Both the position numbers and the translations under genes were made by a program. Of a stretch of DNA of 64,000 nt, positions 30,510 to 58,444 are shown in pieces (the stretch's first letter is position 1; each line of letters opens with the position of its first letter). The stretch is from an uncultured Candidatus Rokubacteria bacterium (GTDB taxonomy: Bacteria > Methylomirabilota > Methylomirabilia > Rokubacteriales > CSP1-6), in assembly GCA_963758635.1 (NCBI GenBank), contig CAVWWD010000003.1:544001-608000 (forward strand), given 5' to 3'. The notes beneath the pieces were generated by a model that saw only the letters and a list, made by a program, of their open reading frames with translations, did no database searches and was not told where the DNA came from.

Positions 30510-31460
30510 TCAGTGACGATGGCGGTGCCCCACGTCGGGGTAGTGAGGGTGCGCGTGCGTGAGGTCACCGTGCGCGTGCTCGTGCTCGTGCCGCTCGCTG
30601 GCGTGTAGCGCCACGCCTGCGGCCATCAGCGCCGCCGCCACGCCGAGGCGGGCCGTGACGGGCTCGCCGAGCGCTGCCACCGCCGCGATCGCCGAGACGA
30701 ACGGCGCGGTGGAGAAGTAGGCCGACGCCCGCGCCGTCCCCAGGTGACGCAGCGCCACGATGAACAGCACCAGGCTCATCCCGTAGCCCAGCACGCCCAC
30801 CACGCCGGCGCCGGCGATCGTGGCCGCGCCCGGCACGCGCGCGCCGTGAGCGAGGCCGATCGTGACGTTGACGGCGCCGGCCACGAGTCCCTTGAGGGCC
30901 GCGATCCGGACCGGGTCGCCGCCAGACACCTGCCGGGTGAGGTTGTTGTCGGCGGCCCACGCGAGGCACGCGGCCACGATGAGGACGGCCGGGTCCCGCC
31001 CGATCGCCCCCGGCGGCCACGCGAGCGTGAGCGCGCCCGCCCCGATGGCGGCCATGCCGAGCGCGATCCGCGCGTCGACGTGCTCGCGGAACACGACCCA
31101 GGCGATGAGCGCGGTGAACACGCCCTCGAGGCTCAGCAGCAGCCCGGCCTCCGACGCGTCGCGCGCGGCCAGCCCCGTCATGAGCAGGACGGGAGCGATC
31201 ACACCGCCGGCGACGATGGCCGCGCCCAGCCAGAGCCAGTCCGCGCCGTGGAGGCGTTTCGCATCCGGCCCGCTCCGGCGCAGCAGGCGGTACACGCCCA
31301 GGCCGACGCCCGCGCCCAGGTACAGGAGTCCGGCGAGGAGCCAGGGATCGGCGCGGTCCAGGAGGTGCTTCGCCGCGGGAATGCTGATGCCGAACAGGAC
31401 GGACGCGCCGAGGGCCGCGGCGATGCCGCCCGCGCCGCCTCGGGACCGGCGGGGGTTAAT
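30510..31460 (-). CDS. EamA/DMT transporter with His-rich C-terminal tail; probable non-canonical start
   Basis: Family-like sequence (ALGASVLFGISIPAAK...LLAGLLYLGAG) extends upstream of the track's GTG 31295 to ATT 31460. Also WAADNNLTR and tail HEHEHAH...HPHYPDVGHRHRH. Confidence 0.85.
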   Translation of the reverse strand: MNPRRSRGGAGGIAAALGASVLFGISIPAAKHLLDRADPWLLAGLLYLGAGVGLGVYRLLRRSGPDAKRLHGADWLWLGAAIVAGGVIAPVLLMTGLAARDASEAGLLLSLEGVFTALIAWVVFREHVDARIALGMAAIGAGALTLAWPPGAIGRDPAVLIVAACLAWAADNNLTRQVSGGDPVRIAALKGLVAGAVNVTIGLAHGARVPGAATIAGAGVVGVLGYGMSLVLFIVALRHLGTARASAYFSTAPFVSAIAAVAALGEPVTARLGVAAALMAAGVALHASERHEHEHAHGDLTHAHPHYPDVGHRHRH

Positions 31461-31513
31461 GACCCTCGCAGAATGCGGTAACCGTCACGGGCCTCTACAG
31501 TCCCACCGCTCGG
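31458..31513 (-). ncRNA. Structured cis-regulatory RNA candidate, copy 2 (possibly sul1-type motif)
   Basis: CCGAGCGGUGGGACUGUAGAGGCCCGUGACGGUUACCGCAUUCUGCGAGGGUCAUU lies directly 5' of the EamA gene; duplicated at 3861-3916. Confidence 0.6.
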
Positions 31514-31700
31514 AGCAGACCCACGCGACGATCATAGCGCCGTGCGGGTCCCTTCCAGCCAAGGAATTCGCGGGCTTTCCCGCCTCGATGACGCCTCCGG
31601 GCGCCCCGCCCACACGCGCTGGACGACGGCCGGGGCGCGCTTCATGTCGGCACGACGCGCGCGCTCGGGGGGCCGATGAGCAAGGCATGGTCCACGAGCG

Positions 31701-32105
31701 CTACTGGCTGGCGGCGGCGCGAGCGATGGCGTCGTCGTTGTCCGCGGGCACGGCGCCGCTGACCCCGACGGCGCCGACGACCCGGCCCGCCTCCATCAGC
31801 GTGACCGCGCCCTTGCCGAACACGAACTGGTACTGGTCGAGCCCGGCCACGTTCAGCGCGAACAGCTGGCGGGCGCCGGCGAAGCGGCCCTCGAGGTCGT
31901 CGGTGGACGCGCGGAACGCGGCGGCGGCGTTGGCCTTGCCGCGCGCGATCTCCGGGGTGACCCAGAGCGCGCCGTCCATCCGATGGCAGGCCACGAGGTG
32001 GCCCGCGTCGTCCACGACGGCGATGGCCACCTGGAACCCGAGCTCACGCGCCTTGGCCAGACCCGCGTCGATACACCGCACCGCCCGATCGAGCGTCAGC
32101 GCCAT
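31701..32105 (-). CDS. GlcG/HbpS family heme-binding protein
   Basis: AIAVVDDAGHL...RMDGA...IARGKA, VGAVGVSGA. Confidence 0.9.
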   Translation of the reverse strand: MALTLDRAVRCIDAGLAKARELGFQVAIAVVDDAGHLVACHRMDGALWVTPEIARGKANAAAAFRASTDDLEGRFAGARQLFALNVAGLDQYQFVFGKGAVTLMEAGRVVGAVGVSGAVPADNDDAIARAAASQ

Positions 32106-32197
32106 GGGTCAGGTCTCAGGGTTGATGTGCGAGCCGAGCCACAACGGCGAGGCGAGCGTACATGGAGTGACGGTCGCCAGCGTCCGCTCGCCATCGG

Positions 32198-32506
32198 TCA
32201 GGGCAGGTCGACGAGGACGCTGTCGCCCTCGATGCGGACGGGATAGCTCGGCACGGCTTCGCCGCGCGCCGGGAACAGGCACTGGCCGGTCCGCACGTCG
32301 TAGAGCCAGCCGTGGAGCGGGCATGCGAGCTTGGTTCCCGAGAGCTTCCCCTGGGAGAGCGAGCCGCCGCGGTGGGAGCACACGTCGCCGCAGGCATGGA
32401 TGGCGTCGCCGACGCGGACCAGGACGACGCGGACGCCGCCCACCTCGGCCAGCCGCGGCTGGCCAGGCGCGACGTCCGCGAGCGCGGCGGCCCGGTGCTC
32501 GGGCAC
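32198..32506 (-). CDS. Rieske [2Fe-2S] ferredoxin
   Basis: CSH...CPLHGW...DVRTG. Confidence 0.92.
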   Translation of the reverse strand: MPEHRAAALADVAPGQPRLAEVGGVRVVLVRVGDAIHACGDVCSHRGGSLSQGKLSGTKLACPLHGWLYDVRTGQCLFPARGEAVPSYPVRIEGDSVLVDLP

Positions 32507-32522
32507 GGGGGCGAAGGCCCGG

Positions 32523-33206
32523 CTAGACCTCTTCCTTGAGGACGTAGGCGCGGTGCAGGCCGGTCATGTACTGCCAGCGCATCTCGGTGGCCTGGCGCAC
32601 CGCCTCGATCGCCTCGGCCTGGCGCTCGGGCGTCCCGCTGTGCCGCTCCACGATCTGGTAGCCGCGCTCACCGTGGATCTCGTCGGCCTCGATGTGGATC
32701 GCGAAGAACTCCACCTCGTGGTCGGTGAAGCCGTAGTGCGTCTTGAGCGGGGGCAGGTTGCGCTTGTAGATGCCGGGCACCTGCGACTCGAGGCCCACGA
32801 GCAGGCCGGCGGCGGCCACGTGGAAGGGCTGCCGCGACATCTCGTAGCACCAGGCGGTGAGCCCGCGCGTGGTGGGGAGCTGCCGAGCGGTCTCCACCTC
32901 GTGACGGCTCACCCCGCACGCCTCGGCGAAGCGGATGAGCAGGTCCACGTGCTTGGTGCCCGACTCCTCCTCGATGATGTTCTCCAGCAGGAAGTCCCGG
33001 GCGTCCGGGTCCGGGCACGACCCGTACACGGTGGCGCACCAGCGCGCGAACTGCGAGACGTACTGGTAGTGCTGGCGCGCCCACGCGCCGAGCTGCGAGC
33101 GGGTCAGGTCGCCGTTCACCCACTTCTCGGTGAACGGGTTCATCCGGCTGTGGCGCGCGTTGACCGCGTCCTGGAGCTGGGTGCGGAACGGGCTCATCTG
33201 CGTCAT
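32523..33206 (-). CDS. Heme-oxygenase-like diiron enzyme (CADD/PqqC/TenA fold)
   Basis: ENIIEEESGTKH, LESQVP, FFAIHIEADEIH give a full E/H/E/H/D/H ligand set; GAGGAG SD before ATG 33206. Confidence 0.88.
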   Translation of the reverse strand: MTQMSPFRTQLQDAVNARHSRMNPFTEKWVNGDLTRSQLGAWARQHYQYVSQFARWCATVYGSCPDPDARDFLLENIIEEESGTKHVDLLIRFAEACGVSRHEVETARQLPTTRGLTAWCYEMSRQPFHVAAAGLLVGLESQVPGIYKRNLPPLKTHYGFTDHEVEFFAIHIEADEIHGERGYQIVERHSGTPERQAEAIEAVRQATEMRWQYMTGLHRAYVLKEEV

Positions 33207-33316
33207 TCGGCGGTCTCCTCGTGCGGCCCCGCGGCGGGCCGGGTCGGTATCCTCGTGCGCCTCAGCGGGCCCGGTCGCTTTCCACGCGCACCGTCGGCGT
33301 GTCTCCGCGTGTCCGT

Positions 33317-34159
33317 TCAGCCCGCGATCTCGCTCCAGACCACCATGCCGGTGCCCGTGCGCCAGGCCACGGCGGGCATGTAGGCCAGCACGTCCGCCGC
33401 CCCGGTGGTGAACGCGAGGGTGAGGATCCAGGACAGCAGCTCGGCGGTGCCGCCCGAGCCCGCGGCCTCCATGCGCTCGAGCGTGCATTCGCGCAGGAGT
33501 GCCGCGTGGTCGCCGGCCTTCAGGAGGTCGAGGAACCAGCGGTCGAACTCCTCGTCCACCCAGAAGTAGCGCGGGCCGCCCGGCTCGTGGGAGAGGCCGC
33601 CGGTGCCGATCACGGCCACGCGCTCCTGGCCGGGGTAGGCGCGCACGATGTCGGCGATGGCCGTGCCCACCTGGTAGGCGCGCTCGGGTGTGGGGATGGG
33701 CGGCACCGTGCAGTTCATCGACACGGGGACCAGCGGGATCCGCATCTCCGGGTTCAGGTAGTGCAGCGGCACCGAGAAGCCGTCGTCGAACTCCATCTTC
33801 CGGAGGTACGCGAAGGCGATGCGCCGGCGCGCGCCCTCGCTCACCAGGTGCCGGGCCAGCGCGGCATGACCGGGCACGCGGTACTTGGGCAGCGCGAGCC
33901 ACTCGTCGTACCAGTCGGCGGGGCCCACGTGCTCATCCGCGATGCCCACCGTGAACTCCGGCGTGTTGTTGATGGGCCAGTTCAGCAGGTGATCGTTGCT
34001 GAACATCAGGAGCACGTCCGGGCGCGCGGCCTCGAGCCGGTCGCGCATCTCGCCCAGCGCGTTCTTGGCGAGGCGCTGGTGCTCGTCCGGCGCGGCGGTG
34101 AACCACCCGGTGAGCCCGGGGGAGTGGGTCAGGGCCATCGCGGCGACGATCTCGGCCAT
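33317..34159 (-). CDS. Class III extradiol ring-cleavage dioxygenase, LigB-like catalytic subunit
   Basis: THSPG, RPDVLLMFSNDH, GTGGLSHEPG, GGTAEL. Confidence 0.92.
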   Translation of the reverse strand: MAEIVAAMALTHSPGLTGWFTAAPDEHQRLAKNALGEMRDRLEAARPDVLLMFSNDHLLNWPINNTPEFTVGIADEHVGPADWYDEWLALPKYRVPGHAALARHLVSEGARRRIAFAYLRKMEFDDGFSVPLHYLNPEMRIPLVPVSMNCTVPPIPTPERAYQVGTAIADIVRAYPGQERVAVIGTGGLSHEPGGPRYFWVDEEFDRWFLDLLKAGDHAALLRECTLERMEAAGSGGTAELLSWILTLAFTTGAADVLAYMPAVAWRTGTGMVVWSEIAG

Positions 34160-34162
34160 GGC

Positions 34163-34507
34163 TCAGCTCCGCGAGTCGGCCTGCGCCTGGGCGGCCAGGG
34201 CTCGCGCGGACTCCTCCGGGTAGGCGCGGCGGTACGCGTCCAGCACCGGATGCGCGTTCGAGTTCGCGGCGGCGCCGTGGAACAGGCGCAGGATCTGCGG
34301 CACGTAGTACTGGTGCACGCCCATCTCGTGGAGCCGGCGCACGTCCTTGTCGCGGAGCGCCTCGTACTCTGCGGCGGAGAGGCCAAACTCGCGCGCCAGG
34401 CCTTCCAGGTCGGTGAGCCAGCGCTCGCGGAGCGCGCGGTCGCGTCGCACGTAGAAGATCATCTCGTTCAGCGGCAGCGTCTTGTCGCAGCGGTCCACGC
34501 TACCCAT
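34163..34507 (-). CDS. LigA-like small subunit of aromatic ring-opening dioxygenase
   Basis: LNEMIF...RERWLTD...FGLSAAEYEAL...LHEMGVHQY; directly upstream of the LigB-like gene. Confidence 0.8.
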   Translation of the reverse strand: MGSVDRCDKTLPLNEMIFYVRRDRALRERWLTDLEGLAREFGLSAAEYEALRDKDVRRLHEMGVHQYYVPQILRLFHGAAANSNAHPVLDAYRRAYPEESARALAAQAQADSRS

Positions 34508-34892
34508 CGGCGCTACCTCGCCGCTGCTCCGCCTTGAGCACCTTCGGGTTCAGCTTGAGGAACATGATCACGCAACGCTCCGGCCCCAGGTTCCGCACGT
34601 CGTGGAGCACGGCGTTGGGGAACTGGACGATGGAGCCCGCCCGCACGACGACCTCCTGGCCGTCGATCTGCATGTGGGCGGTCCCCTCCAGCACGTAGAT
34701 CGCCTCCTCCTCACGCGGGTGCTGGTGCATCACCGTGGACTGGCCCGGCTCGTAGCAGGCGATCTCCGACCAGAGCTGGTCGGTCTTGAAGAGCATCTTG
34801 CGCACGCGCTTGTCCGGCGCGAACGCCTTGAGGGCGTGGAGGTCGAACACCTGAGCGACCCCGGTCGTGGTCGCCACCGCGGTCTCGTCCAT
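34500..34892 (-). CDS. Cupin domain protein
   Basis: PGQSTVMHQHPREEEAIYVLEG...FPNAVLHDVRN. Confidence 0.9.
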   Translation of the reverse strand: MDETAVATTTGVAQVFDLHALKAFAPDKRVRKMLFKTDQLWSEIACYEPGQSTVMHQHPREEEAIYVLEGTAHMQIDGQEVVVRAGSIVQFPNAVLHDVRNLGPERCVIMFLKLNPKVLKAEQRRGSADG

Positions 34893-34996
34893 GCGGGGTT
34901 CTCCTTGGTGGTGGGCGCAGTATACCCGATCAGTCCGCGGGCCGGATCGGCGAGGACGGAGGCGGCACGGCTTGCGGCGGGGGGGGCCGTTGGCGC

Positions 34997-35449
34997 TCAG
35001 CCCGGGAGCCGCAGCTCGCGGCCGGCCTGGATCTGAGCCGCGTCGAGGCTCACGAATCGCGCCAGCGGCTCCCGCTCGTGGAACCACAGCGCGGTCCTGA
35101 GATGGGCCAGGTCCAGGGAGCGAGGCGTGGAGACGATCGGCATCGCCTGGGATCGGCATAGATCGAGCGTCAAGTCCCGCAGCGTGAACTGCGCCAGATC
35201 GGCGGCCAGCCGGTCCAGCGCCTCCTGCAGATGCTCGGGCGAGAGCCGACCTGCGCGCGAGAGATGCACGAGGGTGCGCTCGGCTTCCAGAGCGAGCAGT
35301 GAACTGGACAGGAGGCGCCCTCCGGCCAGTTCCTTGACGAGGCGTTCCCATCCGGCCTCGCCGAGCAACACGCACAGGTACGCTGACGTGTCGACGTAGT
35401 AGCGCCGGGCGGGCACGGCCCGCCTATTTCGGGCGACGGTCGTCGGCAC
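34997..35449 (-). CDS. PIN-domain (VapC-like) toxin
   Basis: YVDTSA, LEAER, RSLDLAHL, FVSLD. Confidence 0.85.
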   Translation of the reverse strand: MPTTVARNRRAVPARRYYVDTSAYLCVLLGEAGWERLVKELAGGRLLSSSLLALEAERTLVHLSRAGRLSPEHLQEALDRLAADLAQFTLRDLTLDLCRSQAMPIVSTPRSLDLAHLRTALWFHEREPLARFVSLDAAQIQAGRELRLPG

Positions 35450-35681
35450 GACGATCGTCGGCCAGGACCTGGAGGTACGCGCCCCGTGTCGGGGCCTTCA
35501 ACAAGGGGCGTAGCGCCGCCCGCCCGGCGCGCACGCCGACGTGTACGTGCTCCAGATCGACCCGTGTCAGGGACGCCACGGGGCGCTGGTGCCGCGTGAT
35601 CACGACGCGCTCTCCGGCTGCGGCCTCGTCGACGAGCGAGGACAGGTTGCGCTTCAGTTGGTCAATCGATACCGTTTTCAT
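35424..35681 (-). CDS. Phd/YefM family antitoxin
   Basis: MKTVSIDQLKRNLSSLVDEAAAGERVVITRHQRPVA; overlaps the toxin gene. Confidence 0.9.
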   Translation of the reverse strand: MKTVSIDQLKRNLSSLVDEAAAGERVVITRHQRPVASLTRVDLEHVHVGVRAGRAALRPLLKAPTRGAYLQVLADDRRADDRRPK

Positions 35682-35781
35682 CTTCTAACCGTACCACTGT
35701 CGGATCCATTTGGGGATGGGTTCGGCACGGTCACGGCCGGTCCCGGCGGGCGCTCGATCGCACAGGTGCGCGCCGCCGGGC

Positions 35782-37572
35782 TCAGGGGCGGAGGGGGACG
35801 AGCAGGAGGCGGTTGTCCTTCACGCCCATCGCGAAGGGAGCGCGGCCGGGCATCGCCTGCATGATGGCCTGGTTCCGCTCGGGGCCGAGATCCTTCACGA
35901 AGAGGACCGGGTCGGAGAGGTCGGGGGACGGGTTGCGGTGGAAGTACACCCAGGCGCCGGGCCGCCACGTGAGCGACGGGAGGCCGTGGACGAAGACCAC
36001 GGCGCGGTCCAGCCGGCGCTCGGCCACGAGATCGTAGGGCAGGCGAGCGAGGGCCGACATGGCGCGGAGGGAGCCGCCGTAGACGGGCAGGAACGCGACG
36101 CACGCGCAGATCACCGCGGCGGCGACGGCGCCGAGGACCAGGCGCTCGGCGCCGAAGGCTCGCGCGCGTTCCACCAGCCGGTCGAGGCCGCTGGCCGAGA
36201 GCATGACGAGGAAGGCGGCGAGCTCGGAGTAGTGCGCGGGCCCGGTGGCGTTGATCGTGGGCAGCGTGCTCGCCGCGTACGCGACCACCACGGCCGCGGT
36301 GGAGAGGAAGATGAGCACATCCGCCGCGGACCGCCGGAAGAACGGCAGCAGCGCCAGCGAGAGCGGCCAGCCGAACACCCAGAAGTTGAAGCGCTCGACG
36401 GTGTAGCCGAGCTCGTACACGCTGGGGAGCGGCGCCGCCGCCTTGACCGCGCCGATGTCCACCGGGAAGCGATACAGCGCGCTGTAGGTGTGATAGCCCG
36501 TGGTGAGCGGATGACCGGCGAGCGCGACGTTGTAGACGCAGAGCACGCCGAAGGCGATCAGGCCGCCCGTGGTCAGGAGCGCGGTGCCGAGAACGCGGGC
36601 GCGCGTCGGGTCGTGTCGCAGCCGGAGCAGGACCCAGACGCCCCACGGAACGACGAACGCCGCCGCGGCGAGCGGCCGCGTCAGCCCGGCACATCCCACG
36701 GCCAGCCCGGCGATGAGCCACCAGGCCGGCGACGCGCCGTCGTCCTGCGCGCGGAGCAGCGCGTCCACGAAGATCATCAGGAAGAGCGCGGACGTCGAGT
36801 GCGCGAGGAGCGTCGCCGAGGACATCACGAAGTAGGGGGAGACGACGAGGCCGGCCAGCGTGAGGATGGCCACGCGCGGCCCGAAGACACGACGCGCCAC
36901 CGCGAACGCGAGCGCGGCGGTGGCGAGGGCCGAGAGCATGGGGACCCAGCGCACGAGACCCAGGAGCTCACCGGCGGCGAGCAGGAAGCCGTGGCCGGGG
37001 AAGAACATCCCGTACCACTTCCCGTTGTTCACGATGAACTGGTTGTCGAAGAACGCGCGGATCGGCTCGGGCGGCGACGGCGCCCAGAGCCCGCCCGCCG
37101 CGAACACACGCGCCATGAAGGCGTAGACGTGCTCGTCGTCCGTGATCGCCGTGTCGCGCAGCAGGAAGAGCCTGGTCGTGGTGATCAGGACGGCCAGCGC
37201 GGCGAGCGCGACCAGGACCACGGCGCGGACACACGTGGGCGCGAGACGGCCGAGCCCGTCGACGGCGGCGGCGAGGCGCGGGCCGCCACCGAGCGCGATG
37301 GCGGCTCCGCCGAGCGCGATCGCGATCGTGCCGAAGACGAGGTAGTTGACGAGGAACGCGAGCTCGAACGGACCCCAGCCGAAGCGGCCGTAGTGAACCT
37401 CGTAGCCGGCGTACGGGATCCCGCCCGCGTAGAGGGCGCCCAGGGAGAGCGCGGCGCCCGCGGCGAGCGTGAACGCGCGCAGCGCGACCGGCCGTGCCTT
37501 GCCGGCGGCCAGCGCGGTCATGCCGCGTGCGTCGAGCTCGGCGGCTTCCGTCGAGGCGTCCAGGTCGGCCAT
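35782..37572 (-). CDS. GT-C fold membrane glycosyltransferase (ArnT/PMT, GT39-like)
   Basis: ITDDEHVY acidic loop after the N-terminal TM helices; multiple TM helices; GLTRP motif. Confidence 0.75.
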   Translation of the reverse strand: MADLDASTEAAELDARGMTALAAGKARPVALRAFTLAAGAALSLGALYAGGIPYAGYEVHYGRFGWGPFELAFLVNYLVFGTIAIALGGAAIALGGGPRLAAAVDGLGRLAPTCVRAVVLVALAALAVLITTTRLFLLRDTAITDDEHVYAFMARVFAAGGLWAPSPPEPIRAFFDNQFIVNNGKWYGMFFPGHGFLLAAGELLGLVRWVPMLSALATAALAFAVARRVFGPRVAILTLAGLVVSPYFVMSSATLLAHSTSALFLMIFVDALLRAQDDGASPAWWLIAGLAVGCAGLTRPLAAAAFVVPWGVWVLLRLRHDPTRARVLGTALLTTGGLIAFGVLCVYNVALAGHPLTTGYHTYSALYRFPVDIGAVKAAAPLPSVYELGYTVERFNFWVFGWPLSLALLPFFRRSAADVLIFLSTAAVVVAYAASTLPTINATGPAHYSELAAFLVMLSASGLDRLVERARAFGAERLVLGAVAAAVICACVAFLPVYGGSLRAMSALARLPYDLVAERRLDRAVVFVHGLPSLTWRPGAWVYFHRNPSPDLSDPVLFVKDLGPERNQAIMQAMPGRAPFAMGVKDNRLLLVPLRP

Positions 37573-37695: not shown

Positions 37696-40600
37696 TCACT
37701 GCTGTCGATTCTCGTGTGCGACCGCCTGGGCGATGGCGCCCAGACGTGCGCGAATGCGGCTGCCGAGCCGCTCGAACGGCAGCTCGTCGAAGATCTCGCG
37801 GATCAGCTCCTCGTCGGTTCGCAACAGGCCGTCCGAGACGATCCACTCGGCAAGCTGACGCAGATCGTGGTCGCTGTAGTGATCGATCGACTCGCGCTCA
37901 GGAGCGCTCGGCCTCGGTCCTCGTGGCCGCGCGACGGGGTGCGACGGCGGCGCGGTGGCGGGCGGGCGCAGCCACCGCCGCGCGGTCGGGGACGTCGGCG
38001 TCCATCCGGTCGGCCAGGTGAACGGCTTCCTGGTAGGCGGCGAGGGCACGCTCAGTCTCCTGCTCACGGCCGTAGAACCAATCCGTGGACCAGATGCGGA
38101 GGAAGCGCCAGCCGAGTCGCTGCAGGTGGGCCTGCCGAAGCCGATCGCGGTCGCGCGCCGTGGCGCTGGAGTGATACGACGCGCCGTCGCATTCGATCGC
38201 GAGGACCGGCCGGCCCGGCCTCGCCGGGTGCATGGCCACCAGGTCGATACGGTAGCGGGACGCGCCGAACTGCGGCCGTGTCCTGATGCCGCGACCCTCC
38301 AGCGCATCGCGAATGTCGGCCTCGAACGGGTTGAGAGGGACCTCCCCGGCGCGCTCCGCGTCGGGAAGGCGCCGGCCCCCGCTCGCCGCGTACTCCAGGT
38401 AGGCCTTGAGGAGCTGCACGCCACGGCTCCCTGAGCGCTCGAGGTCGATCTCGTCATGTGAGAACGAGCTGATGACGGACATCCGGCGCCTCGCCCGGGT
38501 GACGGCCACGTTCAGGCGGCGGTACCCAACGTCCTGGGTGAGGGGGCCGAAACGGTGCGGCAGGTCCCCATTCGCCGACTTGCCGTAGCCGATCGAGAGG
38601 ATGATGGCGTCGCGCTCGTCGCCCTGAACGCGTCTCGAGGTTCTTGACGAAGAAGCGCTCCTCGCGCTCGAGCGAAGAGAACTCTGCGAGGTCGGGATGG
38701 AGGTCCACGACGCGGTCCAGCGCGGCCTGGACGCGGTTTGCGTGCTTGATGCCCATGGTGATGACGCCCAGCGATTCGTCCGGTCGCGTCTCGACGTGCC
38801 GCAGCACCTGGCGGACGACCTCGTCGACCTCGCGCGACGCGCTCTCTTCCTGCCCGCCCACCGAGGCATCGTGCGGCACCAGGACGTGGCGGAGTGCCTC
38901 GTGACCGCGCGCGCTCGGGAAGGTGACGAGGCGCCCATCGTAAACGTGGCTGTTGCTGAAGGTGATGAGCCGCTCGTCCTCGCTGCGGTAGTGCCACTCG
39001 AGGAGCCAGTTCGGGAGGAACGCGCCCAGCGTGTCGAGCAGGCTCTCGAACCCGCCGATCGCCGCCGTGGCCGCGCGAGGGCGTCCTGACCGCCTTCGCC
39101 GCCGGAGATCTCATCCTCGCCTTCGACCGCGGTCGCGAAGAACGTGGTCGGAGGCAGCTGGTGCCGGTCGCCGGCGACGACGACCTGCTCGGCGCGGTAG
39201 AGCGCGGGGATCGCTTCCTCCTGGAGGATCTGGCTCGCCTCGTCGAAGATCACAACGTCGAAGTGGCGCCTGCCACCGTCCAGCAGCTGACTGACCGAGA
39301 GAGGGCTCGCGACCCAGCAGGGCGCGAGCCTCGTGAGGACGTGGGTGCCGGGCCAGGAGCTCGCGTAGCGGGATGTGCCGCGAACGCTTGGCCGCCTCCC
39401 GTCGGACGAGGTCTGCCTGATCGAAGTGCTCGTTCATCGCCGCGACGGCCCGCTCGGCGTGGAGGCGGCGCACGCGCTGAGCGTTCAGGCGGATGCGCTC
39501 CCGGTCGAGGCGGACGAACGCATCGACGATCTGCTCGTGCGTCCGGCCGTTGAAAGAGGCGAGCGCCAGGATCCGACGCGAGCGCCTCGTCCAGGGTGGA
39601 GTGCAGCCAGACGTGCTCGAACCTGTGGGCCCAGTGCTCCGGAGCCACGCCGCTCTCGCGGAGATCGTCGAGGAACCGGGCCAGGCCGGCGGCGACGAGT
39701 CGCGCCCGCGTGCCGTGGACGGCCGGCAGGAGGTACGGCGTCCGCTGGTCGGCGGCCAGCGCCCGCAGCCGCGATGCTAGCGCCCCGAGTGGCATGCTCG
39801 TGAGCGGGCTCCCGTCGGTCAGCGCGCCGAGGGAGGACGTCGCCTTCGCGACCTCCTCGAACACCGTCGCGAGCTCCTTCTCCGAGGGCGCTTCCGCGGG
39901 CGCGGCCGAGGTGGGGCCAAGGGCGTGCCAACGGCGAAGGATGTCCTCGGCCTCCAGCGCCTCCTGCCGCAGCGTTGCCGACGGCGCCGGCGCGGCCCGC
40001 AGCGCGAGCAGGCGCTTGCGGGAGGCCCGGTAGTCTTCTTTGCCAGGAACGCCCAGGCGCGGTGTGCCCGACCACCGGTGGCTGGCGCCAACGCCCGTGC
40101 GAGCTCGGCGGGCTGTGCCCGAACAGCTCGGCGGCATAACGCGCACGGAGCTGACGGACGTCGTGCAGCACGGACAGGAGGGCCGCCACGTCGTCGAGGC
40201 TTCCGGGACCCGGACGCCGAGCTGCTGCACGACCTGGCCGAGCATCCGCTCGAAGGAGGGCCAGAGCTCGGAGGCCTTGGCCGCCAGGTCCAGCGCCTCT
40301 TGTGCTTGGCGACCGTCCACGATCCCGGCGTTGTTCCAGGGAGACGGGTCGGTGCCCAGGAGCAAGCCTCGGATTGGCGGTGCCGTCCACGATCGATCGC
40401 TTGATCTCGTCCGCGCGGCTCGGCGGTCAGGGCGGCGAGCGCGTCACCTCGGAAGCGAAGCGCCGACCGCGCCACAACCGGCAGGCGCAGGAGCATGCCC
40501 ATCATCCGGTTGACGGAGAGATCCGAGGGCGGGCGAGGGGCATTCACGCGACGGGCGTGCTCGTTGAGCTGACGGCGCCGAGCCTCGAACTCTCGCTGCA

Positions 40601-41811
40601 CGACGTTTGCGCCGTCGGCCGGCGCCGCGTGACGTATGTGGTCCAGGGCTTCGGCGAGCCGGGCCATCACGTTTCCTGGACACGGAGGCGCCGTGCAGGT
40701 CGAGCACCAGGTGGTTGAGCCGAACGTTCTCATGGCTCAATCGCTTGATCACCGCCTCGAGCGCGGCTCGCTTCTCGGCCACGAAGAGCACTCGGCGGCC
40801 CTCGGCCACGCTCTGTGCCATGAGGTTGGCGATCGTCGGCTCTTGCCGTGCCCGGCGGGCCTTGCATGACGCCGTTCTGCCCGGCACCAGCCTGCACGAT
40901 GGCACGGTGCTGCGTGGAGTCCGCGTCGAGCACCAGATAGTCATCGGACGCCGGCAACTCGTCGAGCGCGGCAGGCTCGAGGTCGGCCACCGCCTGCGCC
41001 AGGTGCCGGCGTGACGCCGGATGTCCGGCCACCGCGGCCACGATCGCGCTCGCCGCGATGGTGTCGGCGTTCCGCTTCAGGTCCTCGACCATGGCCATCT
41101 TCGCGAACTGGAAGTTGGCCAGGATGGCGCGCCGGTTCACCGCGAATCCCGGAACCGCGGCCGCCGCCCGGGCGATGTGGGCGCGACGCCCTCGGGATCA
41201 ATCCGCCACTCTCCCGAATCATCCTCGCCCCCGCACTCGCTCAGCACGGCGTTCACATCGAGGCGGATCCCGTGGGTTTCCTCGATCACGTACAGGAGCA
41301 CGGGGTTGATCTGCGGCTCGCCCGTGAGCAGGAGCCGTAGCTCGTCGCCCGTCCGGCCGCGCGCCTCGATGCGGGCCGGGAGCAACAGGATCGGCGCCTC
41401 GTACGGCCGCCCGCCGTCGGCCGCCGGCCACGTGGCCATGCCCAGCGCCAGGTACAGCGTCTCGAGACCCTTCTCCTCGAGGTTGCTCAGGGCCTTGCGC
41501 TGCAGGGCCACGAGCGCGCCGCGGACCTTCTGGCGTGCGGCGGTCTCGGCTTGAGCGACAGTCACCTCGGAGGTCTCGGGGGACCGGGCCGCCGGCGCCA
41601 GCAGTTCGGGCGTGAGCGCATCGCCCGCCAACAAACGGTCCACCGCCTCGGTCTCGGTGCTCAGATCGAGGGTGCCGACCTTGAGGTCGCGATAGAAGAG
41701 GAGGGAATTGGTCCGTGAGTAGTCGATGAGCCGACGGGTCCACACCGCACGCGCGGCATCGACGATGTGTCGAATCTCCGGGTTCAGCTCTTCGGCGTGA
41801 GGTTCAGGCAT
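37696..41811 (-). CDS. DUF4011 - SF1 helicase - Vsr-like endonuclease protein (Hhe-like defence gene), multiply frameshifted
   Basis: WTRRLIDYSRTNSLL; DADSTQ...QGPPGT; VLFVAEKRAAL; IFDEASQI; GDRHQLPPT; VQGDERD; RRLNVAVTRAR; IECDGASYHS...RDRDRLRQ...GWRFLRIWSTDW. These occur in collinear order across frames. Confidence 0.85.
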
Positions 41812-50476: not shown

Positions 50477-51415
50477 TCAGCGTCCGGCGGTGGCGGGGAC
50501 GCTCTTGCTCCGGTAGATGGCGCTGCGCCACTCGGCGTGGCTCTTGTCGATGCCGCGCACCAGGTCCAGATACGCCTTGGACAGGCGCTGCGTGAGCGGG
50601 CCCGGACGACCGTCGCCGAGCTGGAACCGGTCGATGGAGACGATCGGCGTGATCTCGTAGCCGCTGCCGCAGAAGAACGCCTCTTCGGCCACGTAGATCT
50701 CGGTGCGGTCGATCTCCCGCTCCACCACGCGCTGGCCGAGCGCCCGCGGCACCAGGTCCTCGATGAGCGTGCTGCGCGTGATCGACTCCAGGATGTCCGC
50801 GGACAGCGGCGGCGTCGTCACCTGGCCCTTCCGCACCATGAAGAACGTGGCCCCGCTGCCCTCGGCCACGTGCCCCTGGTTGTTCAGGAAGATCGGGCCG
50901 TCGTACCCGTCGGCCTTCGCCTGGAGGGTGGCGAGCCGGCCGTTCTGGTAGTTCGAGCCGCTCTTGAGCCGGATGGGGATGGCGTTGTCCGACGTGCGCA
51001 CCCACGAGCTGACGCAGCAGCGGATGCCCGCGTCGTTGACGCGCGCGCGCCGGCGCGGGTTGATGTAGAGCCCGGTCGGCTCGGTGGCGTCCAGCCCCAC
51101 GCCGGCCACGTACGCGACCAGGTGCATGTGGATGTCCTCGCGGAACTGGTTGCCGGAGAGGAGCTCGCGCACCGCGGCGTGGAGATCGTCGTCGGTGTAG
51201 GGGACGGTGAACCGCATCATCTTCATGGACTCGCGGATGCGGGCGAAGTGCTCGGCCAGCCGGAAGCAGTACAGCTCCTCGTCGGCGGGGTTCCAGTACG
51301 CCCGGATGCCCTCGAACACGTTCGTGGCGTAGAAGACCGCCGCGCTGTTCACGGGCAGCTTCGCTTCGGGCTCGGGGACGAGGCTGCCGTTCATCCAGAT
51401 CTTGACCGTGCTCAT
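50477..51415 (-). CDS. ilvE: Branched-chain amino acid aminotransferase (class IV PLP)
   Basis: VFEGIRAY, FRLAEHFAR, VAEGSGA, ILESITR, EEAFFCGS. Confidence 0.88.
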   Translation of the reverse strand: MSTVKIWMNGSLVPEPEAKLPVNSAAVFYATNVFEGIRAYWNPADEELYCFRLAEHFARIRESMKMMRFTVPYTDDDLHAAVRELLSGNQFREDIHMHLVAYVAGVGLDATEPTGLYINPRRRARVNDAGIRCCVSSWVRTSDNAIPIRLKSGSNYQNGRLATLQAKADGYDGPIFLNNQGHVAEGSGATFFMVRKGQVTTPPLSADILESITRSTLIEDLVPRALGQRVVEREIDRTEIYVAEEAFFCGSGYEITPIVSIDRFQLGDGRPGPLTQRLSKAYLDLVRGIDKSHAEWRSAIYRSKSVPATAGR

Positions 51416-51562
51416 CGTTCCTCCTTGGGCGCGGCCCGTCCGGGCGCGCGCGGGGTTCCGTCGACCGACCGCCCTACGTTACGGCTGGTCGGACCACGTT
51501 GTCAAAAGCGCTCTTGGGCGTGTTTCGGCCCATCTGGCATCTCGCGCGTTGGTACATACAGC

Positions 51563-51703
51563 ATGAGCGAGCGGCAACGAAAGGGTAAGTTCCGGCTGCG
51601 AAAGGCGTCGTTCAAGGGAACCGGCCTGCATCCTGACGTTGCCGTGCCTCCTGGGAGCAGATCCGGCCAGGATCTACAAGCGCGTGCCACGTCAGCCGAG
51701 TAG
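51563..51703 (+). pseudogene. Degenerate type II antitoxin (VapB-like) remnant
   Basis: ERQRKGKFRLRKASFKGTGLHPDVA, then shifted SWEQIR...IY; no toxin gene follows. Confidence 0.4.
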
Positions 51704-52878
51704 GACGACACGAAAGTCCCGCTGACCCCGGCGCCGGCGAAGCGGGCCAGGCGGAAGGGCGCGAGGCTCACCGGGGGCGTCGCGCCGGTGACGCGGGCGG
51801 CCATCATCTCGCCCACGGCGGGGGCCAGCTTGAACCCGTGGCCGGACATGCCGGCGGCCACGAAGAGGCCGGCCACCGGCGTCTCGTCGAGGATCGGCAT
51901 CCAGTCGGGCGTGATGTCGAAGGCGCCCGCGTAGCTCGTGTGGAGCCGCGCGTCGGCCAGCTTCGGCACCGCGCGCGCCGTTCGCTCGAGCGCCTCGGTG
52001 GCCTCCCCGAAGCCGGCCTCGCTGCCCAGGAGCTCCGGGTCCATCGGGTGCTGGGTCTCGTCGTCCGTCAGCGAGCCGGTGAGGGTCAGGCCGCCGGTCT
52101 CGGGCCTCACGTAGCTCCCGCCCGCCAGGTCGAGGTACACGGTATGGGGAGGTCCGAAGTCCGCGCTGCGCTCCAGGACGAACACGGGGTGGCGCCCGAT
52201 CATGATCGGCAGCTCGACGGCGGCCAGCGCGGCCACGGCCGGCGCCCAGAGGCCGGCGGCGTTGATCACGACCGGCGCGTCGATCGTCTCTCCCGAGCGG
52301 AGCGTCACGCCGGCCACCCGGTCGCCGTGGCGACGGATGGCCGTCACCTCCGCTCCCTGCTCGATCGTCACGCCGCGCTTCCGCGCCGCCTCGGCGTAGC
52401 CGGCGGTGACCGCCGAGGGATCGCCGTAGCCGGACTCGGGCTCGTGGAGCACCGCGCCGAGGCCGGCGGGATCGATGCGGGGCTCCACGCGCGCCACGTC
52501 GGCGGGATCGAGGATCGAGGCGCGGATGCCGAGGGACTGCTGGAGCGAGAGCGTCCTCTCGAGCGTGGGCCGCATCGCGGCGGACACGCCGATCAGGACG
52601 CCGCAGCCGACGTACCCGGAGTGGCCCGCCACCGCCTCGCCGAAGCGCTGGAACACGCGGAGCGAGCGCAGCACCATCTGGCTCGTCTCCGGCGTGGGAT
52701 AGAGCTGCCGGATGATGCCCACCGAGCGTCCCGTGCCGCCGGCGCCGAGGAACTTCCGCTCGAGCACCACGATGCGGCCGGCGCGGAGGCCGGCCAGGTG
52801 GAAGGCGATGGAGACGCCCGTCACGCCGCCGCCGATGATCACCACGTCGGCGGCGCGAGGCAGCCCGCCCGGGGTCAT
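51692..52878 (-). CDS. FAD-dependent oxidoreductase (sarcosine oxidase beta/DAO family)
   Basis: IIGGGVTG, GTGRSVGIIR, DITPDWMPILD, GMSGHGFKLAPAVG; probable one-base slip before the stop at 51692. Confidence 0.9.
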
Positions 52879-53345
52879 GGAAGGAGGCGGATGGGATCGC
52901 CCGCGCGGATCCCGCCCGGGCGCAGCACGCGCGCGTACACTCGGCTGTCGCCGGGGTTCTGCTTCTGGGAGACGCGCGCGAAGTCGCCGTTCTTGAACGC
53001 GGCCTTGATCTTGAAGCACGGCGACGTGTAGCGAGTGACCTCGACCAGCACCTCGTCACCCAGGGCGAGACGGGCGCCGGGCACGACCGCGCTCCAGTCG
53101 ATGCCGGCCACGGTGATGTTCTCGCCGATGGCGCCGGGGACGATCGCGTGGCCCTCGGCCTGGAGCGCGTGGATGCGCTCGAGGGGGAAGAGGCAGACGG
53201 CCCGCTCCGGGCCGCCGTGGTATCGGAGGTCGCGCTGCTGATCGCCTTGCACGCCGAGCGTGGTCACCCGGGCCTCGGGGACCGGCAGCTTCGGTACGCC
53301 GCCACCGGACACGTTGATCTGCGCGATCTTCCCGATCGCACTCAC
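52875..53345 (-). CDS. MOSC domain protein (YiiM-like)
   Basis: INVSGGGVPK, HGGPERAV, GENIT, SPCFKI, YARVLRPG. Confidence 0.9.
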   Translation of the reverse strand: MSAIGKIAQINVSGGGVPKLPVPEARVTTLGVQGDQQRDLRYHGGPERAVCLFPLERIHALQAEGHAIVPGAIGENITVAGIDWSAVVPGARLALGDEVLVEVTRYTSPCFKIKAAFKNGDFARVSQKQNPGDSRVYARVLRPGGIRAGDPIRLLP

Positions 53346-53412
53346 CGCCGCGCCCGTCTGCCGATCTGCCTCGGCGCTCACAGCCGCACCCGCCGGCCGA
53401 TGTTTCTCACGC

Positions 53413-54387
53413 TCACAACCGCACCCGCCGGCCCATGTTCCTCGCCATGGCCCGATCATACGCGAGCCGCGCGGTGGCGGCGTCCTCGGCGGCCCAGCCC
53501 ACGGACTTGAAGAGCGTGATCTCGCGATCGGAGCGGCGGCCCGGCTTCCGGCCACTGACCACCTCGGCGAGCTCGGCGACCACGTGCCGGCGCGGGAGCG
53601 CGCCCGCGCGGATGGGGATGAGCACGTCGCCCGCCTCCGTCCACGCGCCCTCGTACGTGTCCACCACCACGCGGGCGCGCCGCACGCCCTCCGTATCCAC
53701 CTCGCGCGCGTGGGGCAGGAAATTGCCGACCGCGTCCACGTGAGCGCCCGGGCGGAGATCGCGGCCCCTGAACACGGGCGTGGTGGCCGTGGTGGCGCAC
53801 ACCACCACGTCGGCGTCGCGGACGGCGGCGCTCCGATCAGTCGTGACCGTGACGGGCACGCGGAGCGCGCGACGCATGCGCGCGGCGAAGTCGCGGGCGC
53901 GCGCCGGGCTCCGGCCCACGACGGTGACGCGGTCGATCGGCCGCACCGCCTGCAGGCAGCGGAGCTGGAACTCCGCTTGCACCCCGGCGCCGAAGCAGGC
54001 GACGGAACGCGCGGCGGCGCGCGCGAGATGACGGGAGGCCAGCGCGGAGGCGGCGCCGGTGCGGATGGCGGTGAGGAAGCCGGCTTCCATGAGGGCCAGC
54101 GGCACGCCGGTGGTGGCATCCGTGAGCAGGTACGAGCCATGGATCGTGGGGAGGCGCCGCGCCTTGTTGCCGGGCACCCAGGTCACGAGCTTGGTGCCGA
54201 GCGTGCGACGTCGGGAAAGGCTCGCCACCATGGAGAGGAAGATGCCGCCGCCCGTCATCGGGAGCATGGCCCGGGGCAGCGCGCGCACCTGGCCCGCGGC
54301 CGCCTCCTGGAAGGCGGTCTCCACCGCGCCGATCACGTCGGCGGGTGACAGGAGGCGCTGGAGGTCCCGGCGCGTCAGGATCAGCAC
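53413..54387 (-). CDS. Ornithine cyclodeaminase/mu-crystallin family protein
   Basis: LTAIRTGAAS, FGAGVQA, ADVVVCAT, LFKSVGWA. Confidence 0.92.
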   Translation of the reverse strand: MLILTRRDLQRLLSPADVIGAVETAFQEAAAGQVRALPRAMLPMTGGGIFLSMVASLSRRRTLGTKLVTWVPGNKARRLPTIHGSYLLTDATTGVPLALMEAGFLTAIRTGAASALASRHLARAAARSVACFGAGVQAEFQLRCLQAVRPIDRVTVVGRSPARARDFAARMRRALRVPVTVTTDRSAAVRDADVVVCATTATTPVFRGRDLRPGAHVDAVGNFLPHAREVDTEGVRRARVVVDTYEGAWTEAGDVLIPIRAGALPRRHVVAELAEVVSGRKPGRRSDREITLFKSVGWAAEDAATARLAYDRAMARNMGRRVRL

Positions 54388-54425
54388 GATGTCAGCCCCC
54401 CAGGCAGGCCACGATCGGCACGCGC

Positions 54426-55130
54426 TCAGCCTTCCCCGAGGTAGGCACGGCGCACCTCGGGGTTGTCGGCCAGCTCGCGCGCCGCGCCCTCCAGCACGAT
54501 GCCGCCCGTCTCCAGCACGTACCCGCGCCCGGCGATGGCCAGCGCCATCGCGGCGTTCTGCTCCACGAGCAGGATCGTGACGCCCTGGCGGTTGATGTCC
54601 TGGACCGTGTCGAAGATCTGCTCGACGATGACCGGGGCCAGGCCCATCGACGGCTCATCCAGCAGGAGGAGCCGCGGCCGCGCCATCAGCGCGCGCCCGA
54701 TGGCCAGCATCTGCTGCTCGCCGCCGGAGAGCGTGCCCGCGACCTGCACGCGGCGCTCCTTGAGCCGCGGGAAGATGGAGAACACCCGCTCCATGTCCGC
54801 GCCCACCTCGGGGTCGGCGCGGGTGTAGGCGCCCATCTCGAGATTTTCCACCACGGTGAGCCGGTTGAAGATCCGGCGGCCCTCGGGGACGTGGGTGATG
54901 CCGCGCGCCACGATGGCATGGGCGGGCACGCCGACCAGCGACACGCCCTCCAGCGTCACCTCGCCCGCGCGCGGGCCGAGGAGCCCGGAGAGCGTGCGGA
55001 GCGTCGTGGTCTTGCCCGCGCCGTTGTTCCCGAGGAGCGCGACGATCTCGCCCTGTCCCACGCGGAACGTGACGCCCTTGAGGGCGTGGATCTCGCCGTA
55101 GTAGACGTGCAGGTCGCGGACGTCGAGCAT
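54426..55130 (-). CDS. livF: Branched-chain amino acid ABC transporter ATPase
   Basis: GNNGAGKT, VPEGRRIF, LSGGEQQM, LLLDEPSMGLAP. Confidence 0.95.
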   Translation of the reverse strand: MLDVRDLHVYYGEIHALKGVTFRVGQGEIVALLGNNGAGKTTTLRTLSGLLGPRAGEVTLEGVSLVGVPAHAIVARGITHVPEGRRIFNRLTVVENLEMGAYTRADPEVGADMERVFSIFPRLKERRVQVAGTLSGGEQQMLAIGRALMARPRLLLLDEPSMGLAPVIVEQIFDTVQDINRQGVTILLVEQNAAMALAIAGRGYVLETGGIVLEGAARELADNPEVRRAYLGEG

Positions 55131-55138
55131 GGCGCGCG

Positions 55139-57210: not shown

Positions 57211-57232
57211 GTGCGTCTGCGGTCAGGCGTTC

Positions 57233-57401: not shown

Positions 57402-57403
57402 AG

Positions 57404-58390: not shown

Positions 58391-58392
58391 GA

Positions 58393-58427: not shown

Positions 58428-58444
58428 AGGGCGCATGCGGCGAG

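Follow-up and report, generated by a model that had tools for sequence, protein, structure and literature searches.

Six small genes in the genome of an uncultured Candidatus Rokubacteria bacterium raise the question of whether a heme-oxygenase-like dimetal enzyme (HDO) can be the oxygenase with which ring catabolism starts. An initial annotation had read these genes as a candidate new pathway of aromatic oxidation, the HDO making a ring ready for cleavage by a LigAB-type dioxygenase. The window, meaning the whole stretch of DNA that was analyzed, comprises 64,000 nt (assembly GCA_963758635.1, contig CAVWWD010000003.1, positions 544,001-608,000 of the forward strand), and its source is placed by GTDB in Bacteria; Methylomirabilota; Methylomirabilia; Rokubacteriales; CSP1-6.

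Two conserved cassettes in a six-gene block

The genes proved to be closely spaced and co-oriented, as had been described, and all are encoded on the minus strand. The first three, here termed cassette A, encode a Cupin_2 protein of 130 aa (34500..34892), a LigA-like small subunit of 114 aa (34163..34507; PF07746, E 6.5e-10), and the 280-aa large subunit of a LigB-family extradiol dioxygenase (33317..34159), assigned by Pfam and by a fold match. Cassette B follows with the HDO of 227 aa (32523..33206; Haem_oxygenas_2, PF14518), a Rieske [2Fe-2S] ferredoxin of 102 aa (32198..32506), and a GlcG/HbpS (DUF336) protein of 134 aa (31701..32105). Cupin and LigA overlap by 8 nt, and the later gaps along the block are 3, 110, 16, and 92 nt, the 110-nt gap being the junction between LigB and HDO (33207..33316, minus strand). 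Each protein exceeds the cut-off of its own Pfam family (Cupin_2, LigA, LigB, Haem_oxygenas_2, Rieske, and HbpS-like). These reading frames are not chance occurrences, because 80 loci encode relatives that share 80-90% identity with the HDO, most of them in records titled Rokubacteria or Methylomirabilota. An ESM Atlas search returned family-level matches only, and an Rfam scan of positions 30800-36000 gave no matches.

A survey of gene neighborhoods, which the initial annotation had suggested as a check, found HDO-Rieske-GlcG and cupin-LigA-LigB each to be conserved, but not the six-gene block as a unit. On the cassette A side, LigA was no more than four genes away from LigB in 34 of 35 LigB loci, and the cupin orthologue, present in 64 of the 151 genomes of the class that we searched, was within 1.6 kb of LigB in all but one of these (63/64). 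On the cassette B side, the Rieske gene directly followed HDO in 76 of 80 loci, and GlcG was the first or second gene after HDO in 77. Across the junction, LigB immediately preceded HDO in only 2/80 loci; the gene in that position was otherwise GGDEF (16), PurE (14), GntR (10), cupin (2), or another gene (34), with two contig edges. The six-gene arrangement is mainly a local feature of gene order.

HDO orthologues were detected in 70 of the 151 genomes (70 of the 105 searched in the window's order) and LigB orthologues in 78, with both in 66, HDO only in 4, and LigB only in 12. All three genomes of one genus and six of another are among the LigB-only genomes, three of which are 98-99% complete in 10-30 contigs. 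Because the genomes are kin, neither these counts nor those of loci are independent. Where both genes occurred, they were at most 11 kb apart in 20/66 genomes, representing 10 genera, and at most 1.5 kb apart in 4 genomes of 2 genera; they lay on separate contigs in 44/66, some of which may be assembly splits. Contrary to the split into two cassettes, the cupin remains with HDO in G027, L026, and L028.

Signals resembling promoters were likewise separate for each cassette, including in loci L052 and L054, where LigB abuts HDO. Of 29 cupin orthologues, 17 are preceded by a minus-10-like hexamer pattern (shuffled mean, 0.3); in the window it occurs at 34919..34924 on the minus strand, where it is a candidate promoter element of cassette A. 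A minus-35-like word precedes HDO in 37 of 80 loci (shuffled mean, 3.7) and is not present in the 110-nt junction of the window; a strict scan for sigma-70 promoters and terminators gave no sites. In four metatranscriptome runs from one study, short contigs matched all six genes, and a near-identical contig of 445 nt spans LigB and HDO (33114-33558), although such contigs cannot prove a single transcript and DNA was possibly present.

We consider it rather probable that the block consists of two separately conserved cassettes lying side by side, one encoding a ferredoxin-fed dimetal oxygenase and the other a separate dioxygenase that cleaves N-aromatic rings; the reactions of the two need not be consecutive. 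The alternative is a single pathway, in which HDO, fed by the ferredoxin, hydroxylates an amino- or heteroaromatic ring, a LigAB with an active-site His-to-Asp exchange cleaves it, and the window preserves what trimming has left as the core of a cluster ancestral to Rokubacteriales. Several observations agree with a single pathway: 66 of the 70 HDO genomes carry a LigB orthologue, close to HDO in 10 genera; trimmed clusters retain these same six genes (the window, L052, and L054, with an added GntR in L034 and L044), while the source genome yields no formamidase match; and three of the four HDO-only genomes are also without a Rieske orthologue. Against it stand the 12 LigB genomes without HDO, entire genera included, the separate promoter-like signals, and the absence of lower meta-pathway genes from the 48 common neighbors scanned in Pfam. 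Both cassettes are, moreover, near-core in one family, so their co-occurrence is expected from descent. The pathway proposed by the initial annotation was further undercut by the nearest HDO relatives in cultured bacteria, which have no LigAB nearby. A functional HDO-LigAB link is possible, given that most Rokubacteriales genomes carry both cassettes, but we think it unlikely that a single pathway explains the block. It is equally doubtful whether the block forms the minimal core of an aerobic route not described before, itself near-core in Rokubacteriales, where a Rieske-fed, CADD-derived enzyme replaces the classical ring hydroxylase and passes an amino- or heteroaromatic compound on to the His-to-Asp LigAB; if it did, ring catabolism would have a heme-oxygenase-like enzyme as its entry oxygenase.

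Relation of the dimetal enzyme to CADD and PqqC

The HDO scores 114.8 bits against PF14518 (cut-off, 28.9), and its structural model (pLDDT 96) finds its best fold match in CADD (CT610 of Chlamydia trachomatis), with a TM score of 0.88 and an rmsd of 1.6 to 8VA9; CADD and related 4-aminobenzoate synthases (PDB 1RCW, 8VA9, and 9PJ4) are the closest known enzymes of this kind. CADD and HDO have in common the heme-oxygenase-like fold and an E-H-E-H-D-H ligand set. Alignment to 1RCW pairs E80, H86, E140, H171, D175, and H178 with CADD E81, H88, E142, H174, D178, and H181, confirming that the full set is kept, and these residues are invariant in two alignments of 20 and 51 rows. The same alignment bears out the predicted replacement of CADD Tyr27 and Lys152 by Thr26 and Asn150. 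Other aromatic residues of CADD have been replaced as well (Tyr43 by W42, Tyr47 by H46, Trp92 by L90, Tyr141 by L139, and Tyr170 by F167), and HDO, unlike CADD, is encoded next to a ferredoxin gene.

These differences bear on the possibility that HDO makes p-aminobenzoate (pABA) or a related folate precursor, turning over repeatedly on a free substrate and closing a gap in Rokubacteriales. No relative of solved structure is closer than CADD, the source genome encodes a dihydropteroate synthase over cut-off (as do 71/91 genomes of the family) with anthranilate synthase as its sole chorismate-binding enzyme, and PabB exceeds its cut-off in none of the 70 HDO genomes. PabB is, however, missing from genomes without HDO as well. 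A general reliance on vitamin salvage is suggested by NadA and NadC, each of which was detected in just 9 of the 91 family genomes. The Y27F change in CADD abolishes pABA formation (PMC9522330), and HDO lacks both Tyr27 and Lys152. HDO also scores 138.9 bits against TIGR04305, the family of CADD-type pABA synthases, below the cut-off of 200, and falls outside the 31-row CADD clade that retains these residues in a quick IQ-TREE analysis (77 of 90 rows used, the 13 that covered fewer than 175 residues having been dropped); this tree separates the CADD clade and does not resolve the sister of the present one. No folate gene was found among the 48 common neighbors scanned, and the gene cluster of the sister clade looks catabolic. 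The view of the initial annotation that HDO is unlikely to be a pABA synthase therefore holds, and we regard a role in folate precursor synthesis as very improbable. The idea that loss of Tyr27 had created a pocket for free tyrosine was weakened in turn: because Tyr27 of CADD lies ~14 A from the metals (PMC9522330), its loss opens no active-site pocket. An NAD precursor route, with HDO as hydroxylase and LigAB as 3-hydroxyanthranilate dioxygenase, was rejected, since most of the family lacks NadC as well as NadA; in five genomes, neither tryptophan dioxygenase nor kynureninase over cut-off was found (0/5 each).

Databases name relatives of HDO PqqC, and the fold is indeed shared (PDB 1OTW and 3HLX; TM 0.85-0.86). 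HDO nevertheless scores only 70.6 bits against the PqqC family TIGR02111 (cut-off, 240) and keeps its metal ligands, whereas PqqC is described as working without a metal (PMC11363339). The true PqqC of a relative, genome G103, scores 315 and lies beside pqqB and pqqE in a separate cluster. Comparison with both families, another of the suggested checks, thus identifies HDO as neither a self-sacrificing pABA synthase nor a PqqC.

Proposed electron supply and substrate of cassette B

The initial annotation assigned the Rieske ferredoxin to HDO. Adjacency upholds this: besides following HDO in nearly all loci, the Rieske orthologue lies less than 1 kb from it in 63/64 genomes with both, and it is found in 0/12 LigB-only genomes. 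The protein is a stand-alone polypeptide of ~100 aa with a CxH...CxxH motif, in which C43, H45, C62, and H65 are invariant. Six of the 70 HDO genomes gave no Rieske orthologue; in two of these, HDO lies at a contig end. HDO is 50% identical to proteins of Cupriavidus, Skermanella, and Caballeronia, members of a proteobacterial clade of more than 1,100 proteins, where in all three loci examined the gene cluster also contains two [2Fe-2S] ferredoxins, an FAD/[2Fe-2S] reductase, an aldehyde dehydrogenase, GlcG, a cyclodeaminase-family protein, and GntR, without LigAB nearby (3/3). Of the three proteobacterial HDO replicons searched, all plasmids or chromids, one carries a 30%-identical LigB ~80 kb away and two carry none. 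The pairing of HDO in this clade with different, plant-type ferredoxins and a reductase is an independent indication that HDO needs electrons.

We consider it likely, on these grounds, that the dimetal site of HDO activates O2 and oxidizes a small, soluble, free substrate, and that the enzyme is fed by the Rieske protein through multiple turnovers instead of sacrificing itself as CADD does. The Rieske protein would pass electrons one by one to HDO from a reductase encoded elsewhere; we propose that HDO could turn over many times without CADD-like sacrifice because the Rieske protein would resupply these electrons. No NAD(P)H-flavin reductase is linked to HDO in the cluster of the window or in other Rokubacteria, and the Reductase_C domain was not found in the source genome. 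A universal reductase acting in trans was considered and rejected, the stand-alone candidate on contig C10 being present in only 30 of 151 genomes. Co-folding of HDO with the Rieske protein scored 0.01, against a mark of 0.32, which speaks neither for nor against their pairing.

A different reading, in which the Rieske protein serves Rieske oxygenases in trans or reactivates oxidized LigAB while HDO is a stand-alone oxidase or, together with GlcG, a metal or oxidative-stress protein, takes its support partly from the rest of the genome. The cluster has no Rieske oxygenase large subunit, as the initial annotation had noted, but genes for such subunits occur at three other places. HDO-GlcG pairs without Rieske were seen in 3/80 loci and also in G045 and G108, and a more distant HDO clade lies beside enoyl-CoA hydratases with no called ferredoxin, gene calls there being incomplete. 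The constancy of the Rieske neighbor, its absence from LigB-only genomes, and the different ferredoxins and reductase of the proteobacterial clade argue against this reading, which we judge improbable.

Provision of an HDO with a dedicated redox partner has a precedent. Canonical HDOs require an auxiliary reductant (PMC11363339), and MboA, a biosynthetic desaturase that acts on a peptide, is served by its own [2Fe-2S]/flavin reductase MboB, described as perhaps the earliest known case of an HDO with a redox partner dedicated to it (PMC13185094, PMC13725569). Like MboA, the present HDO is encoded with its own electron-transfer protein, and the reductase of the proteobacterial sister cluster is of generally similar architecture to MboB. 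Cassette B differs in three respects: the partner is a stand-alone Rieske ferredoxin, GlcG comes as an additional component, and the setting looks catabolic; the likeness is one of gene context, not of an alignment with MboA. In the cited literature, HDOs have roles in natural-product or cofactor biosynthesis, and the clade described here is a candidate for a catabolic, multi-component HDO oxygenase.

The GlcG protein has EfgA as its best solved relative (E 2.3e-17) and belongs to the same DUF336/GlcG family as NahX, PduO-C, and HbpS. Two GlcG subtypes replace each other after HDO, as second gene in 47/80 and 27/80 loci, and the subtype of the 27 shares 63-65% identity with the proteobacterial GlcG. 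Pathways that generate aldehydes repeatedly include DUF336 proteins, and formaldehyde is a ligand of EfgA (PMC8153426). GlcG does not point to nonaromatic substrates alone, because the family member NahX is also part of meta-cleavage operons (PMC5336314), an association that a single HDO-LigAB pathway would accommodate. Tentatively, and by analogy with the neighbors of the 50%-identical relatives, from which the substrate class is taken, HDO may hydroxylate the carbon adjoining nitrogen in a small amino, imino, or N-heterocyclic acid, with release of an aldehyde. The nearly invariant Arg210 would then hold the substrate by its carboxylate, and the released aldehyde would be bound or sensed by GlcG; no aldehyde dehydrogenase was found among the common neighbors scanned in Rokubacteria. 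A more specific guess, pyrrole-2-carboxylate or a pyrroline acid, had come from the aldehyde dehydrogenase and cyclodeaminase-family neighbors and is no more than a guess: both are under their family cut-offs (565 versus 770 and 145 versus 322), and the papers listed in a literature search showed no link. In Cupriavidus metallidurans CH34, HDO lies in a chromid cluster, at about 169.3-170.0 kb of NC_007974.2, and a term search of the genome paper of this strain found no mention of the cluster. Since the clade occurs in cultured Proteobacteria, its substrate can be sought genetically in that strain, and cassette B is well suited to testing what GlcG/DUF336 proteins do.

The altered active site of cassette A

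Full-text literature searches listed no paper that describes this HDO clade or the LigAB clade of cassette A. The LigB model matches LigAB (1BOU) and DesB with TM scores of 0.81-0.84 at 24-26% identity in the fold search, and the protein falls under every NCBIfam cut-off (best, 136 versus 290 bits). With LigAB protocatechuate 4,5-dioxygenase (1B4U/1BOU) and the gallate dioxygenase DesB, cassette A shares the small and large subunits, the Fe triad, and the base: the predicted Fe ligands H12, H57, and E240 and the base H191 are all invariant in 22 rows. It departs from them at Asp126, which replaces a conserved His (LigB His127, DesB His124). The initial annotation had correctly pointed to DDG in place of DHG, taking it as a hint of a different substrate; the active site is indeed changed, and the motif is kept in 118/120 homologues and 50/52 locus orthologues, making this His-to-Asp LigAB a new active-site variant. 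In DesB, His124 binds a substrate hydroxyl and is essential (PMC3962378).

Cassette A differs further from LigAB and DesB in its partners, which include amidase and F420-type enzymes without the usual lower pathway. The genes most often downstream of LigB in the 35 loci encode formamidase-family (19), F420-type LLM (17), DoxX (10), VOC (9), and PPOX (9) proteins; the formamidase had no match in the source genome, which is 87% complete. A LigB-family enzyme that cleaves an N-heterocycle to an amide-bearing product is PydA, the 3-hydroxy-4-pyridone dioxygenase of Rhizobium. The comparison with PydA is one of description, the rhizobial matches, ~31% identical, being annotated only as extradiol dioxygenase. 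We think it reasonably probable that cassette A opens a ring beside two heteroatoms, using Fe(II) on H12, H57, and E240 with H191 as base. Asp126 would bind NH or NH2 where catechol enzymes use His for OH, and the amidase would usually trim the ring-opening product. Relatives of this LigB with 41% identity in Bosea and Corynebacterium lie beside amide hydrolases and without HDO.

Conservation of the two cassettes

The genome is 6.17 Mb and 87% complete, and the window is part of its contig C3. As the initial annotation described, the genes for a cupin (34500-34892), LigA (34163-34507), LigB (33317-34159), the heme-oxygenase-like dimetal enzyme HDO (32523-33206), a Rieske ferredoxin (32198-32506), and GlcG (31701-32105) are co-oriented; all six lie on the minus strand and score above Pfam cut-offs, and none of their products reaches an NCBIfam function-level cut-off. 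This observation and the accompanying residue assignments are confirmed, and the interpretation built on them is partly supported: the genes do not form a conserved six-gene unit but two cassettes, cupin-LigA-LigB and HDO-Rieske-GlcG, which adjoin directly in this window.

HDO relatives at 80 to 90% identity bear titles mostly from Rokubacteria or Methylomirabilota. In the best 80 of 103 confirmed HDO loci, with genes called by a simple codon model, the gene directly after HDO encodes the Rieske protein in 76 and GlcG in 3, and the second encodes GlcG in 74; because the genomes are kin, these and the following counts overstate independence. The gene before HDO is GGDEF (16), PurE (14), GntR (10), LigB (2), cupin (2), or another (34), with a contig edge in the remaining 2; thus the LigB-HDO junction of the supposed unit recurs in 2 of these 80 loci. 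LigB occurs anywhere in the fetched sequence in 16 of the 80, many loci being short. Among 151 genomes of the class (105 in the window's order), 70 hold an HDO ortholog (at least 75% identity) and 78 a LigB ortholog (at least 65%), all within that order; 66 carry both, 4 HDO only, and 12 LigB only, the last group also counting against a single unit. A Rieske ortholog, in a slightly different sample (67 matches, 3 in genomes not searched for HDO), lies within 1 kb of HDO in 63 of 64 genomes holding both; the 12 LigB-only genomes all lack it. That the ferredoxin is unrelated to HDO seems quite improbable; it would accord with the Rieske oxygenases at three other places in the window's genome and with the 6 of 70 HDO genomes that have no Rieske ortholog.

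The cupin and LigB are at most 1.6 kb apart in 63 of 64 genomes. Within four genes of 35 LigB loci were LigA (34), cupin (23), a formamidase-family protein (19), an F420-type LLM protein (17), DoxX (10), a VOC protein (9), and a PPOX protein (9), and LigB relatives in Bosea and Corynebacterium (41% identity) adjoin isochorismatase, amidohydrolase, hydantoinase, or formamidase genes. The initial annotation had HDO, as an oxygenase, preparing an aromatic or heteroaromatic ring that LigAB then cleaves. Such a single pathway, which we consider unlikely, is favored by the 20 of 66 genomes, in 10 genera, that carry both cassettes within 11 kb (4 genomes, in 2 genera, within 1.5 kb) and by the cupin kept beside HDO in genome G027 and loci L026 and L028; in 44 of the 66 the cassettes are on different contigs, and in 2 they are more than 800 kb apart. 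The present gene order probably descends from an ancestral catabolic neighborhood that was trimmed in the window's genus. The window's genome (87% complete) yielded no formamidase match, and its LLM ortholog is on another contig than the cassettes.

HDO is preceded by a minus-35-like word in 37 of the best 80 loci, among them both in which LigB abuts HDO, where shuffling gives a mean of 3.7; for the cupin, 17 of 29 orthologs have a minus-10-like hexamer upstream, where shuffling gives 0.3. In the window, the cupin hexamer is present (34919-34924) but the HDO word is not, which makes read-through from the cupin cassette into HDO plausible here.

Directly upstream of the cupin, on the same strand, is a Phd/YefM antitoxin and PIN-domain gene pair (34997-35681; PIN match below cut-off). 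Downstream, also on the same strand, is a gene for an EamA-family transporter whose C-terminal tail is His-rich (30510-31295); it was not seen among the conserved neighbors of HDO loci. A 57-bp intergenic repeat (31457-31513; second copy, 3861-3916) that can form two small hairpins has about 135 genome copies of at least 45 bp (148 blastn hits) and no Rfam match; it resembles REP-type or miniature mobile elements. A long gene at 37700-41750, which we take to be a DUF4011-type helicase, appears split into several frames and may reflect a pseudogene or assembly indels.

Active sites of HDO and LigB

Alignment to the Chlamydia pABA synthase CADD (1RCW) bore out the full ligand set claimed for HDO: E80, H86, E140, H171, D175, and H178 match CADD's six ligands and show no variation in either of two alignments (20 and 51 rows). 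The predicted HDO model (pLDDT 96) best matches CADD 8VA9 (TM 0.88, rmsd 1.6). Although fold and ligands are shared, CADD's substrate residues are missing: Tyr27 and Lys152 are replaced by Thr26 and Asn150, as the initial annotation had stated. Tyr43, Tyr47, Trp92, Tyr141, and Tyr170 are also changed, to W42, H46, L90, L139, and F167. The source of CADD's pABA is its own Tyr27, and product formation is lost in Y27F (PMC9522330). A quick 77-row tree groups the 31 rows retaining three CADD tyrosines and the lysine in a single clade (support 100), with HDO outside it.

A folate role for HDO is very improbable. The family mostly holds dihydropteroate synthase without PabB, but HDO-less genomes show the same pattern, and the CADD substrate residues are lost. 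Of the Rokubacteriales genomes searched, most encode dihydropteroate synthase but no PabB over cut-off, and NadA and NadC were each found in 9 of 91 (main family), which suggests that the order depends widely on salvaged pABA and niacin or has an unknown pABA route.

PqqC was ruled out as an identity for HDO, which scores 70.6 bits against a cut-off of 240, whereas the true PqqC of a relative lies within a pqq cluster and scores 315. A second CADD-like clade in Rokubacteria (L121-L123), about 36% identical and scoring under the TIGR04305 cut-off, has an unrelated context, adjoining glycosyltransferase-like genes and a gene that is presumably CinA/molybdopterin-binding-like.

LigB retains H12, H57, E240, and the base H191, and its predicted fold resembles LigAB and DesB. 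In DesB, His124 binds a substrate hydroxyl and is essential (PMC3962378), whereas LigB has Asp126 at that position, so the motif change originally noticed is real. Asp is found in 118 of 120 homologs and 50 of 52 locus orthologs; the His-to-Asp change is clade-wide. Asp126 would suit an NH or NH2 group of the substrate.

Electron carriers and the proposed reaction

The best full-length match outside the HDO clade (49% identity) is a member of a proteobacterial family with at least 1,153 proteins. Of seven matching plasmid or chromid records, three were analyzed; the HDOs of Skermanella, Caballeronia, and Cupriavidus are 50% identical to that of the window. Their cluster encodes two [2Fe-2S] ferredoxins, a small unknown protein, an FAD/[2Fe-2S] reductase, an aldehyde dehydrogenase closest to alpha-ketoglutaric semialdehyde dehydrogenase, GlcG (in Cupriavidus 63 to 65% identical to a second Rokubacteria subtype), a cyclodeaminase-family protein, a membrane protein, and GntR; the 18.7 kb read contains no LigAB. 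HDO is thus linked to an electron carrier in both phyla, of a different type in each. Both clades have eight non-ligand sites in common (W42, H46, Y49, F53, W119, Y147, R210, Y213), a weak test because they were partly chosen from an alignment holding both. Another HDO clade (45%) adjoins enoyl-CoA hydratases, with no ferredoxin called.

The literature reports that canonical HDOs require re-reduction after turnover (PMC11363339), that MboA requires MboB in what is possibly the first dedicated HDO-partner pair (PMC13185094), and that ferredoxin-like genes accompany SznF and RohS, with about 40% of HDO clusters said, citing a review, to encode an electron-transfer protein (PMC13725569). HDOs with a redox partner are already a known kind of system; the apparent novelty is a stand-alone Rieske ferredoxin and GlcG beside HDO in a catabolic setting, together with the His-to-Asp LigAB. 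In keeping with the claim that the arrangement is uncharacterized, the open full-text literature, with subscription journals mostly outside its coverage, yielded no study of the HDO or LigAB clade, and the available passages of PMC13133933 and PMC2864759 held nothing relevant.

We propose that NAD(P)H, acting through a reductase and the Rieske protein, would reduce the dimetal site, which would activate O2 and oxidize a free small substrate. More tentatively, an N-containing acid may be hydroxylated next to the nitrogen to give an aldehyde, an idea in line with the aldehyde dehydrogenase, the cyclodeaminase-family protein, Arg210, and GlcG. Among solved relatives of GlcG the best is EfgA, a formaldehyde-binding protein, and DUF336 genes are found repeatedly in aldehyde pathways (PMC8153426). 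GlcG cannot decide between aromatic and non-aromatic substrates, because NahX, a GlcG-family protein of unknown function, sits in meta-cleavage operons (PMC5336314). No reductase for HDO and the Rieske protein was identified in Rokubacteria. Contig C10 of the window's genome encodes a [2Fe-2S]/FAD reductase and a small Rieske ferredoxin (L153:5091-6433), with no oxygenase called beside them; orthologs of this reductase occur in 30 of 151 genomes.

A 106-aa protein encoded between the proteobacterial cluster's two ferredoxins (L083:5400-5720) matches nothing in Pfam or NCBIfam and is a candidate coupling protein. About 16 kb upstream of the window's cluster, on the same strand, 50477-59647 holds cyclodeaminase-family, MOSC, and FAD oxidoreductase genes, with what we take to be a branched-chain-type ABC transporter and an aminotransferase. 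The cyclodeaminase-MOSC-oxidoreductase run is also found at loci L001, L023, L052, and L067, a few genes upstream of HDO; the window-side cyclodeaminase-family protein is only 33% identical to the proteobacterial one.
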